This document shows, piece after piece, positions 3,861 through 27,737 of a stretch of 64,000 bases of DNA. The stretch lies in NCBI GenBank assembly GCA_951406725.2, contig OX597815.1, positions 96,534,001-96,598,000 on the forward strand. Reading direction: 5' to 3'. Made by a program: the position numbers and the translations under genes. Origin of the DNA: Octopus vulgaris. Lineage: Eukaryota. Under the pieces are notes generated by a model. The model saw only the letters and a list, made by a program, of their open reading frames with translations, searched no databases and was not told the origin of the DNA. Each line of letters opens with the position of its first letter. Position 1 is the stretch's first letter.

Positions 3861-5974
3861 TGTGAGTAAATCATTGATGTTTAATACATATGAAAACTAA
3901 TTGCAGTTTCACTTGCTTCTCTGACCAAGTATTTTGCAACGTATTATGATTCTTATTTACTGCGAAAAATAATTATCTTATGGAAACTGCAGCGTAGTAG
4001 CCTATAAAGAAAAGTTAACAAAATATCTGCTATGTATAATCGCATTGGGATTTCTTATCCGTTAGCCTTACTGCAAAATTAAATAAGCAGCCCTATGATC
4101 AAAGGCGTTTCAGTCATAATCTTTTTTTTTTTCGTTAGATCGACTGTATCCTAGTAAAGTACCAGCTTAGGTATCCTTCTGTTTTACAAGACATTGCAAA
4201 ACTCATTTCGAGCTGGCTTCTATATTTATCAGGGGGAGCAATCGTCATTTTACTCATTCTATAACTTTATATGATGTAACATTCGCTTACCATATTAATA
4301 ACAAAATGTTTGCGTGAATTTATTTTAGGAACGTTTCATACACAATATACAATAACTAATAGGCTTATATGGTAACTTATTGTTTCAATATTTTCAGGAA
4401 AATCAACAATGATATTGAAATTCTCCATTTTTCAAAGCTATCACAAATTCTACATTGGATAATTATTTCCCAATTTACGAGCAACATAAATGGGTAAACA
4501 ACATTTATATAATTACTTAGAGAATAGTCAATTGAATATATTTTAAATTACTGAATATTCAATTACATGCATATACACAACTTCATAAGTATTCATGCAT
4601 TCGCAAACACACAGACACATGTATAGTCTAATATTGGAAAATATCCAGGGTGTCTTCTGAATAAATAATTCATATAGATTAACCAGACAATTTAAGTCTG
4701 TTGTAATCATAGTCATAATGTAAATATAATTCATTATCATTATGAAAGTCCTGCTTAACGCAGACAATGGAGGGGTCTAATATGCTACTGATAACCGAAT
4801 ATTGAATTTACAGCGATTTACGTTCTGCAATCTGCGTTCCGGCATTTTTGGGCAGATTTGCAACTCATACTGAGGACAGCTTTTGTCATTTTTGGTTTAA
4901 AACGTAACTAGCTCCAATACTACTATTGTCTAACATTCTCGTTTTCTTCATCGCTCCCTTTTCCGGTGTCCAACATTGTGCAGTAAAGCATTTAAATATA
5001 CTTAAAGGGATATTACATATATCTCCACATATGAAAATTAAAGTCTGAAGGAACTCTAGCGCTTGACAGACTGTTGTCTCATGTATACCGTACAAATCAC
5101 CAGTAGTAAAAAAAAAACAGACTGTCTAATTATAAACACTTATTGCTACCAGCACGGTATTTTCAAATTTTGCTGAATGTAACAACGAAGATCGTAAGTT
5201 TTAAGCAAATCTCTCAAGATATAGAATATTATATAGAATTGAGCTATAAATATGTCAGCTCAATATTCAGAATATTGGGAAAATCATAAATAAAATATGA
5301 ATATTAGCATAGGACTCTTGAATTTTTTCATCACAACGGCCCAATTACTCCTACAAACTCAAAATTTGGAAAAGAAATATATTTGAAACAAAGAATTCAT
5401 AACGTATAATGACATGATAAATAATGAATGACATGATAAATAAAACGAAATGCATCTAGCAAAACAACCGAAGTATTAAATAATAAATATATTATAAGAG
5501 ATAACTGCGTAAATAAGTTTATATTTGAAATTGTACATGCCAAGACACACACACATGTAATCACAAATACATATACACATACACACACACACACATATAT
5601 ATATATATATATATATATATTCATGCTTATATATGTATGTATATATATTCGTATGTATATAATATGTAAAATATTTAAGATATGCAATGAATCTATGTGT
5701 TCATAATTCATGTATATAGCGTGGCTTATATATATATATAACATTAACAAATATATTCAATATTTAGACGGATAATATTTTCACGAATCAGTCGAAATGT
5801 CTATCTATCTATCTATCTATCTATCTATCTATCTATCTATCTATCTATCTATCTATCTATCTATCTATCTATCTATCTATCTCTCCCTCTCTCTCTCTCT
5901 CTCTATATATATATATATATATATATATATATATATATTCCAATCAAAATAAGCAACAAGGATATCCAGAGGTA

Positions 5975-6064
5975 ATGCAGTACGATCGTTTCATGCGACC
6001 TCATTTAATTGAACAATGTAAATATTACATCAATTTTAAAATGTAGAGCAATCTTCAGTTGCAT
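5975..6064 (-). ncRNA. Type I hammerhead ribozyme motif
   Basis: Minus strand: augcaa CUGAAGA u ugc[long loop]gca u GAAA c GAUC g UA cugcau. Core intact, palindromic loop 3, GUA cleavage triplet, one stem I mismatch. Confidence 0.75.
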
Positions 6065-6194
6065 TGTTTAATCAACAACATCGATGTTGTTGATGAAACA
6101 TGTTCTTTGTCTATCTATTTATCCTCTTTGTGATTTTGGTTAGTAGAAAAACTATACAAATGAATCCTTCGAATTTAACGAAATTCTATATTTT

Positions 6195-6284
6195 ATGCAG
6201 CTGAAGATTGTTCTACATTTTAAAATTGATGTAATATTTGCATTGTTCAATTAAATGGAGTCGCATGAAATGATCGCACTACAT
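6195..6284 (+). ncRNA. Type I hammerhead ribozyme motif (degenerate partner copy)
   Basis: atgcag CTGAAGA ttgt...gcat GAAA tgatcg ca ctacat. Mutated at U16.1 and in stem I. Confidence 0.6.
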
Positions 6285-6723
6285 TACCTCTTGATATCCT
6301 TGTTGCTTATTTTGATTGTAATCACCCCATTTTGATTTTTATGGATAATACCATACTAAATTCTGGTGCTATTAACTTAAGTACCATATTCAACTGTATC
6401 TAAATTTTACTAAACTTATCTATCTCTCTAGTCTTCTATCTATCTATCTATCTATCTATCTATCTATCTATCTATCTATCTATCTATCTATCTATCTATC
6501 TATCTATCTATCTATCTATCTATCTATCTATCTATATGTCTGTCTGTGTGTGTGTGTGTGTGTGTCTGTCTGTCTATCTATCTATCCATCTATCTATCTA
6601 TCTATCTATCTATCTATCTATCTATCTATCTATCTATCTATCTATCTATCTATCTATATATATATATATATGTATAATATATATATATATATATATATAT
6701 ATATATATATATATATATATATA

Positions 6724-6895
6724 TAGGGGGGAGTTCACGTGAAAAATTAGGGACGAAGACAGGTTTACAAAACAAACTGATGTATTAGTATAACGCTCAG
6801 AAATTGAGAAGTCTTTTACGTTTCGAGTCTACGTTTTTCTACAGAAAGGGACACAGAAAAAACAAGGAGAGAAAAGAATGTGTGTAGTGGCTACA
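6724..6895 (-). mobile_element. Short TA-flanked repeat with a minimal hammerhead-like motif at 6813-6848
   Basis: Homologous to 48021-48215. Minus strand: cuuu CUGUAGA aaaacguagacuc GAAA CG UA aaag. Confidence 0.6.
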
Positions 6896-6950
6896 CACAT
6901 ACATACATATATATATATTTGTATATATATATATGTATCTATCTATATAT

Positions 6951-7318
6951 TCTCTTATTCTTTTACTTGTTTCAGTCATTTGGCTGTGGCTATGATGAAG
7001 ACACCGGAAGTTACTCTTTGTAAGCTTAGTACTTATTCTATTGGTCTCTTTTACCGAACCGCTAAGTTATGGGAGCGTAAGCACGCCAACATCGGTTGTA
7101 AGCAATGGTGGGGTAACAAACATAGGATCACAATCACACAGACTCACAAACACACATATGCGACGGTCTTTCAGTTTTACATCTAACAAACCCACTACAA
7201 GACTTTGGTAGGCCCGAGGTAATAGTAGAAATCACTTTCCAAATGTACCACGCAGTAGGACTTAACCTGCAACCATGTATTTCAGAAGCAAGTTTTTACC
7301 ACACAGCTACGCCACGCA
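6951..7318 (-). mobile_element. tRNA-derived SINE, family 1
   Basis: Similar to the 20719-21126 copy along its length. Confidence 0.85.
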
Positions 7319-25671: not shown

Positions 25672-25722
25672 GAGTTTACAGGACTAGAACTGTTTCATTC
25701 AAGAGAAATCTTCAGGAAGCTC
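25672..25722 (-). ncRNA. Antisense copy of the same hammerhead, with a damaged stem I 3' arm
   Basis: Identical core and stems II and III. The 3' arm reads aacuc instead of gaagcuc. Confidence 0.65.
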
Positions 25723-25724
25723 CT

Positions 25725-25777
25725 GAGCTTCCTGAAGATTTCTCTTGAATGAAACAGTTCTAGTCCTGTAGAAGCTC
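25725..25777 (+). ncRNA. Type I hammerhead ribozyme, apparently intact
   Basis: gagcuuc CUGAAGA u uuc-ucuu-gaa u GAAA cag-uucuaguc-cug UA gaagcuc. 7 bp stem I, predicted cleavage after GUA at 25770. Confidence 0.8.
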
Positions 25778-26842
25778 CTTCTATATAATAAATTAATTTT
25801 ACTCTACTATGTATTGAGTACCTTATTTACTGTGGTTAACCCAGAATCAACCCGGGACCTACATATATATATATATATGTATATATATATATATATATAT
25901 ATATATATATATATATATATATATATGGATACATAATAGCACATATATGCATAAGCTGTATCTATACACACACACACTTATATATAATATAAATACTCAT
26001 AGATACATATAATTATACACACATGCACGTTACTGCACCCCACGCATCCTTTCCCAAGTAAGTTTTATCTCTCTCTCTTTCTCTCTCTCTCTCTCTCTCT
26101 ATATATATATATATATATATATATATACGTAGATAGGTATTATGTATGTTTGCAAATTTAAAGATCAAAAGATCATATATATTTTCTTTATATAAGGTGT
26201 TGAAACAGATCACAATCATGCCACGAAACTGGAAATTGAGCAGGTTTGAATTTTTAATTTCCCTCCTACTCAAACACCGCCTTTAATTCCATGATTACAA
26301 TCTGTTTGATCGAAATATAGAAAAATAATATATTTGATCTCTTGATCTCTAAAGTCACATTGTTACATTGTTACGGCTTCAAGTTCCTTTTGCGTAAATA
26401 TATGTGTGTGCGTGTGTGTGTATGTGCACGCGTGTATCTGTGAGTTTGTGTGTGTGAATGTGTGTGAGTGTGTGTATTTCTAGGAGCATGTGCATATATC
26501 TATATCCATACACACACATATACATATACATATATATATACATACACACACACACACACACACACACACACACACACACATATATATATATATATATACA
26601 CATACATATACACAGTGTATGAAAGATACAAACAATATATTCAGAAGTATATGATCTGGGAACATAAAATCCCTCATAATCACAGTCACGTGCACATACA
26701 CACACACACGCACAAACGCACACAGGCATATAGTTCAAATTTTTGCATAAACCCAGCAATTTTGGGGTGGCGATTATGTCAAAACCATGAAATATAAAGT
26801 CGATGTTGACGCTGTTTGAACTCAGAACGTGTGTGTATAAAA

Positions 26843-27430
26843 CAAGGACATTTGATTCAATCTAAATATTTTATCAACATAACGAATGATAAAAATAGTA
26901 CAAACTGGTAAAGATATTCTCTGACAGCTGTTTCTGGGATATCCCAGCTATTGGAGCATCGTATCGAGCGAAGATTCTATAAGATGGGTATTCGATCATG
27001 AGCAAAATATAGTTAAGCCTGGAAGATACCTTTTTGTCTTTGCTTTTACCAGAATGTATCATTATTCCATGCACAACGCTGGATCAGCTAACATTCACTT
27101 TCATTTCTCCTCAATATGGAGCACTGCATAACAATTGTTTCCCTCTTCTCACATTGCTGAATCACTTAATCTTCTGGTCATGGATTTCTCTAAAAAAACA
27201 TCTGATTCAACAGTATTTATTTGAACCCTCCTACCCGCCTGAACATAATGAACCGCAATAATATAATTGATGAGGAACATACTCTATCTACATTTCTCCC
27301 ATGACGGAATAGCCATCTTATAGAGACCTCTCTCCATACGATGCTGCAATAGCTGGGATATTCAAGAAACAGCTGTCGTTATATAGATAAATTTTCAGAT
27401 TAAATAAAATGAAACCAAATGTCCTCGTCC
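26843..27430 (+). mobile_element. Older fold-back element (arms about 26843-27017 and 27282-27428) with a degenerate hammerhead at 27261-27384
   Basis: gacagctgtttctgggatatcccagctatt...ctataagatgg pairs with ccatcttatag...aatagctgggatattcaagaaacagctgtc. Hammerhead: atataa TTGATGA gg...a GAAA cagctg TC gttatat. Confidence 0.65.
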
Positions 27431-27689
27431 TGCCTTGAGTAATAGTTTGTCTTTACTCACTACTTTAACCTATATCTACAGACTGAAAGGGAAGAAACCA
27501 TTTGCTTTTTTTTTTAAACAAACAATCATATAACCACAACTTCAATCCCTGGTGTGACTGGAATTTTGGTGACACACCTATTTGAGATCTCAGAACGTAT
27601 TCGCCTCATGCCCTCTCTCACTGTCTATATATATGCATGCATATATATGAGAAATATTGGTATTTAGAAGACCCAAATTTTCTCACACC

Positions 27690-27737
27690 GTCTCTGATTA
27701 AGGGTTATCCATAAGATACCAGAAACAGCTGTAAGAC
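27690..27737 (+). ncRNA. Minimal type I hammerhead motif (G8U, probably decayed)
   Basis: gucu CUGAUUA ag ggu-uauc-cauaa-gaua-cc a GAAA c AGCU g UA agac. Confidence 0.65.

Follow-up and report, generated by a model that had tools for sequence, protein, structure and literature searches.

The insertions of Penelope-like elements (PLEs) follow a described anatomy. They contain an inverted 5′-truncated copy, a partial tandem and a tail, they are biased toward (TA)n, and Hydra-clade members carry hammerhead ribozymes (Craig et al. 2021, PMC8557442). The Hydra clade includes Hydra-1_Obim, from an octopus, and is marked by RW(K/R) and DKT motifs, a CxCX5C linker, CxxC/CxH, the lack of CCHH and a length generally below 3 kb (PMC8557442). 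In vitro, a Poseidon element shows cleavage and extension on both strands with two internal starts of reverse transcription (Frangieh et al., PMC11167929), and dual hammerheads on opposite strands, 100–700 bp apart, arise from truncated PLEs (PMC4209133). Animals also contain retrozymes without long terminal repeats (non-LTR retrozymes; PMC7229834; bioRxiv 10.64898/2026.07.22.740005). Their mobilization by PLEs is a hypothesis drawn from co-occurrence and from homology to the pseudo-LTRs (pLTRs) of PLEs, and eight of nine retrozyme dimers assayed did not cleave (bioRxiv 10.64898/2026.07.22.740005). The available main text of an octopus repeat annotation contains neither "hammerhead" nor "ribozyme" (PMC13282606). 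Our literature search, which lay mostly outside subscription journals and Repbase, found no cephalopod retrozyme and no retrozymes with the inverted-copy and tail ends of PLEs. Here we describe four foldback elements with hammerhead motifs, E1 to E4, in a 64,000-nt stretch of the Octopus vulgaris genome (the window; contig OX597815.1, G000:C2:96534001-96598000). The genome around the window is 2.8 Gb and microsatellite-rich.

The elements are E1 (5939–6420), E2 (21199–21733), E3 (25659–25862) and E4 (26843–27475). Their inverted and sense arms are 92% (E1), 83–85% (E2), 96% (E3) and 83% (E4) identical, each element has an unpaired tail, and microsatellites directly adjoin E1, E2 and E3. Comparison of all four with one another gave no significant similarity; the best match is 33 nt at 76% identity (E 0.007). 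An earlier note on this DNA, made from the letters alone, had described mutually dissimilar foldback elements, the first three abutting microsatellites, with a PLE-type inverted copy plus tail and (TA)n targeting, and these points held. All four elements show varying 5′ truncation, an inverted 5′ copy and a tail on one side, and with their partial tandems they resemble PLE insertions in general. The outer ends are constant at (TA)n. The note had looked to constant palindrome centers as the sign of autonomous small families, and the centers are variable in all families examined. The E1–E4 hairpins are the published PLE insertion pattern, and the insertion signature of E2 is the telling part. 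The observation is largely real, and the proposed new class of protein-free ribozyme retroelements is absent: that description is the best reading for E2, whereas E3 is the end of an RT-encoding (reverse transcriptase-encoding) PLE and E1 and E4 likely are too. With high confidence, we take E3 to be pLTR plus tail, at the 3′ terminus of a protein-coding PLE with Hydra-clade motifs, E1 and E4 to be likely ends of two related families, and E2 to be a closed 540-nt non-coding unit likely mobilized in trans by such enzymes.

The parent of E3 and its insertion products

The E3 monomer, used as a query, returned 30 loci; their junctions were diverse and there were five long extensions upstream. One copy continues from the tail into the start of an open reading frame (ORF). 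When the ORF start was used as the query, E3 sequence lay directly upstream in all 20 loci fetched (the whole monomer in 18 and the tail part in 2). Two of the five longer copies fetched have an intact 713-aa ORF, and the other three are frameshifted. One parent copy carries a second E3 pLTR about 2.4 kb past the stop codon, and the parent measures about 4.9 kb from the first pLTR to the second tail. Direct reading of the protein identifies YRDD and VYxC..YIG motifs in a single ORF, with an RT and, at the C terminus, a GIY-YIG-type endonuclease (EN). The protein also has the RWR variant of RWK, DKT, the linker CNCPDKTTC (CxCX5C), CDLC (CxxC) and CMH (CxH); CCHH is absent, with one Cys in that core. 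The (TA)n insertion and the pLTR hammerhead agree with the Hydra clade, and E3 shares a U-U at the base of stem II with Hydra-1_aJap. Judged from these motifs, E3 is the pLTR and tail of a young RT/GIY-YIG element of Hydra-clade type.

Several points weigh against this assignment. A Pfam scan of the parent protein gave no RT or GIY-YIG family match, and the clade call rests on motifs defined in Craig et al. 2021 rather than on placement in a tree. The parent length, about 4.9 kb, exceeds the less than 3 kb typical of Hydra elements, and a microsatellite-rich 3′ untranslated region (UTR) likewise sets it apart from the clade. The tails of the elements described here are 45–100 nt long compared to 30–40 nt in the Hydra clade, and the hammerhead differs from that of Hydra-1_Obim. 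The 3′ UTR (about 2.4 kb) is mostly (TA)/(TG) simple repeat common to copies (L177:3410-5001, L202:1-1373). The element may therefore spread microsatellites.

Contigs from four sequencing runs, presumed to be RNA, cover E2 and E3 and bridge the tail to the ORF in three. At the two end sites of E3 they have loose (TA)n ends; strand, true ends and circles lie beyond contig data. In these four runs the summed contig depth of the pLTR (L177:950-1243) exceeds that of the ORF by a factor of tens to thousands, which may only reflect copy number.

The E3 ends were counted in a position-ordered sample. An exact 35-nt tail pattern gave 3,477 matches and a control pattern gave none; the 68-nt tail as a DNA query gave no matches. 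The census covers the first 90 of the 3,477 in order of position, on contig C1. In 86 of these 90 copies the sense arm has its 3′ end at +133/+134 from the ribozyme core (one base ±1). An inverted arm within 400 nt, the commonest E3 product, is found in 58, and about 2,200 E3 hairpins would exist if the sample is typical. The outer end of the inverted arm lies at +55 to +65, within 11 nt, in 57 of the 58. There are 48 junction strings among these hairpins, the commonest occurring five times; the count is inflated by subfamily variants, and two or three neighboring loci are possibly duplicates. The sense arm begins at −6 in 26 copies and within −6 to −1 in 45; it begins further upstream in 23 and between 0 and +68 in 22, and none of the 90 starts at −7 to −16. 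Cleaved linear RNA was rejected as the template, with no sense arm (0/90) beginning at the cleavage site. Of the 58 hairpins, 5 pass with both ribozyme motifs, 25 with one and 28 with none. The 150–200 bp hairpin as the majority product and the sharp upstream boundary distinguish E3 from PLE insertions in general; we found no such census in the parts of the PLE literature available.

A whole-hairpin query had suggested a constant E3 center: its 40 best matches are all nearly end to end with 96–100% identity. This candidate was rejected as query bias after sampling with the monomer and the tail pattern. The same query does return many copies with the junction of the window copy, so some re-amplification from an E3 hairpin master may have occurred.

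E2 and the older families E1 and E4

The E2 unit is about 540 nt long with 33% GC, and its longest ATG frames are 29 aa (sense) and 49 aa (antisense). Its tail passes through a linker of about 150 nt back into the start of the unit in 10 of 30 loci from the window query and in 20 of 30 from a linker query, three of these repeating loci already sampled. Every tail continuation, on many chromosomes, leads to the same linker and then the unit, and upstream homology never extends beyond what the tandem or the element's own tail accounts for. The sense 3′ ends (30 loci) cluster at unit positions ~441–467 in 21 and ~535–541 in 6, and the inverted copies mostly end at the other of these two preferred sites, which is the PLE tail signature. 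The hammerhead core is complete in 63 of 78 distinct copies, and the pair at the base of stem II is G-C, A-U or G-U in 69 of the 78. At one locus (L279) a dimer carries two complete ribozymes, spaced by 538 nt. It is the sole full dimer in 90 locus rows, among which no longer array was seen and partial tandems are common. Predicted E2 circles are more stable than shuffled sequences, with an inconsistent strand preference. A strand-specific fold, suggested by L279 (z −5.4 versus −1.3), was rejected because it was not repeated in three other units (sense −4.7, −2.4 and −4.3; antisense −3.7, −1.5 and −5.2; E1 control −3.2).

The type I hammerhead, lack of coding capacity, GC content, head-to-tail unit and self-paired predicted circle of E2 resemble those of animal non-LTR retrozymes. 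E2 differs from them in its mostly dispersed insertions of 1–1.7 units instead of arrays, its PLE inverted copy, two preferred ends, 42-nt stem II and GUU site, and in that no homologous PLE pLTR was found. These sequence features indicate that E2 is likely a PLE-mobilized retrozyme, and probably a new family. Against this stands the failure to find a partner enzyme; comparison with Hydra and Neptune PLE proteins gave no match in the 60 of 90 locus rows compared. The Neptune-type PLE in the window might still act on E2 in trans. A diverged E2-like subfamily with a partial tandem is inserted past another Hydra-type ORF (L205:4750-5500). A second E2-like relative adjoins an E1 tail in locus L151, and these elements nest in one another's (TA)n.

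E1 and E4 are likely ends of Hydra-type PLEs, as judged from protein fragments near their copies. The upstream extension of E1 varies in length and exceeds 1.48 kb in 2 of 30 copies. The longer stretches have 2.2 kb of AT-rich sequence in common at 88% identity, beyond which broken Hydra-type EN or thumb fragments are found in 9 of 20 loci. The inverted arms of E1 end near one outer position, and their inner ends are spread over more than 100 nt. The E4 copies are 72–77% identical, i.e. old, and its 30 loci include three distinct places with Hydra-type protein matches upstream. Two considerations temper the assignment: no full RT-EN ORF joined to its pLTR was recovered for E1 (20 loci) or E4 (30 loci), and the support for an E4 parent comes from those three places, the EN fragment being inverted in one. 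PLE parents are therefore likely for both rather than demonstrated. An AT-rich 3′ UTR of about 2.2 kb distinguishes the E1 parent from the Hydra clade, as do the stem II inserts of about 60 nt in E1 and E4. A degenerate Hydra-type endonuclease fragment is present in the window at 9541–9882 (−) (tblastn E 5e-6 against the E3 parent).

Hammerhead motifs and other features of the window

A strict type I hammerhead descriptor matched the window once, in E3 on the plus strand. In 60 shuffled windows it gave means of 0.0 with the stringent filter and 0.45 with the loose filter. This first descriptor allowed a stem II of up to 40 nt and therefore missed E1, E2 and E4. A relaxed perfect-core scan added E2 (core 21520) and a match at 44940 that is probably due to chance. 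E1 and E4 have hammerheads with a 59–60 nt insert in stem II that are damaged in the window copies, as read from the window sequence against family copies. In the plus-strand motif of E1 the GUA cleavage triplet reads GCA, and the E4 core is broken on both strands. The relaxed scan is passed by 18 of 30 E1 loci and by 2 of 30 E4 loci (one distinct place). In an Rfam scan of the window, the 150 matches listed (of 220) included no hammerhead family. The earlier note was right that every family has a type I hammerhead motif and that some elements have motifs on both strands. The ribozymes themselves fare less well: the only undamaged hammerhead in the window is that of E3 on the plus strand, and no element has two intact ribozymes. 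An additional hammerhead-like motif at 27694–27733 (+), whose core is defective, shares its stem III with E4 and has no BLAST link to E4 copies.

Table 1. Coordinates of the elements and of the PLE in the window.
Feature	Position	Strand	Description
E1 inverted copy	5939–6064	−	hammerhead motif, core 6058–6052, mismatch in the first pair of stem I
E1 sense 3′ end of likely Hydra-type PLE	6065–6420	+	pLTR, core 6201–6207, triplet mutated, ~100-nt tail
E2 sense part	21199–21613	−	unit positions ~128–541 of ~540 nt; tail 21199–21300
E2 type I hammerhead	21455–21527	−	7-bp stem I, 42-nt stem II with A-C mismatch at base, GUU site 21462
E2 inverted copy	21596–21733	+	unit ~300–445; ribozyme not included
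E3 inverted copy	25659–25722	−	hammerhead motif with stem I lesion
E3 intact type I hammerhead	25725–25777	+	core 25732, U-U at stem II base, GUA site 25770
E3 rest of pLTR and ~70-nt tail	25778–25862	+	continues into 5′ UTR and start codon in ORF-bearing copies
E4 inverted copy	26843–27015	−	degenerate hammerhead motif
E4 sense 3′ end of old, likely Hydra-type PLE	27026–27475	+	degenerate hammerhead about 27290–27385
Neptune-type PLE	39606–42720	−	frameshifted RT, GIY-YIG; hammerhead-like motif, U3-A8 core, at 39750

The PLE at 39.6–42.7 kb, which the earlier note had offered as the type of element that mobilizes all four, is a different element. It has DKG, a CxxxxCxxC linker, CCHH-type residues and Pfam RVT_1 and GIY-YIG matches, and comparison with E1–E4 and with the E3 parent protein revealed no similarity. 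By its motifs it is Neptune-type and not the parent of E1–E4. Its hammerhead-like motif (39719–39757, −) is present in 17 of the 20 Neptune-family loci where the anchor matched, and the U3-A8 core variant has been described (PMC4209133). A long interspersed nuclear element (LINE) with endonuclease and RT frames lies beside it at 42755–46400 (−). Inverted repeats of 351 nt flank transposase frames at 11127–12980, which we take to be Tc1/mariner-like.

Priming model and alternative explanations

We infer twin priming from the end statistics. The GIY-YIG endonuclease would cut both strands of a (TA)n site, and reverse transcription would be primed by each freed end at one of two internal positions, which are fixed and lie 45–100 nt apart. 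If both cDNAs ended early and then became joined head to head, the outer ends would be constant, the tail one-sided and the center variable. If the inverted cDNA were long enough, a second ribozyme motif would appear on the opposite strand as a by-product. The hairpins would be dead insertion products, predicted not to self-cleave because the complement of the ribozyme is transcribed first on either strand and the hairpin is about 70 kcal/mol more stable than the ribozyme-folded form (predicted −112 versus −42 kcal/mol).

The 5′ edge of ribozyme stem I is where most E3 cDNAs stop, and it would be the likely 5′ end of the transcript. The arm edge at −6 lies 29 nt below a TATA motif, and this position suggests run-off there. 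TATA-like words are frequent upstream of E3 (11 in 488 nt), which reduces the force of the spacing, and an extra G at 10 of 18 non-parental arms is mostly ambiguous and was not counted as support. Because the stop also falls where stem I ends, snap-back of the cDNA on stem I accounts for it no less well than a start site does. Complementarity in stem I ceases at exactly the same base, and an AGCT palindrome common to both arms in 6 of 90 copies offers an alternative place of annealing. Copies without an inverted arm, plus two that run into the ORF, nevertheless start at that base, and the TATA motif is at −29. We consider snap-back or palindrome annealing a serious contender, at somewhat less than even chances against a transcript end.

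Other explanations concern the nature of the elements. If all four were independent protein-free mini-elements that spread as hairpins, the near full-length matches in 40 of 40 cases, the predominance of the hairpin among E3 products (58/90) and the non-coding E2 would be expected. The 40/40 result was selected by the query, whereas sampling without such selection gave 48 junction strings among 58 hairpins; an intact ORF has the E3 sequence as its pLTR, and among E1, E2 and E4 copies the inverted arm is frequently missing or of a different length. This explanation is largely refuted for E3 and very improbable overall. Hammerhead viroids have a rod-like fold and ribozymes in both polarities. 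The hairpins share a predicted rod-like fold with them, E1, E3 and E4 have motifs on both strands, and both motifs pass in 5 of 58 E3 hairpins, as though viroid-like rods self-cleaved in both polarities and replicated from RNA to RNA. The resemblance, which the earlier note had also drawn, breaks down because insertion left the second ribozyme as an exact inverted duplicate, which is rarely intact together with the first (one or both motifs are lacking in 53/58) and is buried in a DNA-borne hairpin. With the arms head to head, either strand makes the complement first, folding of the ribozyme would cost the predicted ~70 kcal/mol, and a single ribozyme per strand is unable to excise a monomer. 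We regard RNA-to-RNA replication as having a negligible chance of being correct. Finally, E2 might be the pLTR region of an undiscovered autonomous PLE or a local tandem duplication. The copies examined are the best-scoring ones only, no partner enzyme was found, and one full dimer is present among 90 locus rows. On many chromosomes, each tail continuation seen returns to the unit by way of the linker, upstream homology stays within what the tandem explains, and the diverged subfamily has the same tandem. This origin is unlikely, and trans-mobilization of a retrozyme remains our preferred reading of E2.

The start site and E2 can be joined in a scheme that we put forward tentatively and with some doubt. 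A capped PLE transcript would begin at the 5′ edge of the ribozyme, the RT would start at two sites a short way downstream and prime from both cut strands, and linear RNA would thus give rise to tiny hairpins only. Circles made by the ribozyme and rolled by the RT would yield partial tandems that restore the promoter, and E2 would be a protein-free circle that parasitizes this route. The origin of the inverted and partial-tandem ends of PLEs and the purpose of their hammerheads are called open in PMC8557442 and PMC11167929. E3 is young, has intact ORFs and numbers thousands of nearly identical insertions, and E2 is non-coding with a PLE signature, which makes this matter and the mobilization of animal retrozymes by PLEs testable in one genome. 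If true, the scheme would provide direct sequence evidence for PLE enzymes moving animal retrozymes.

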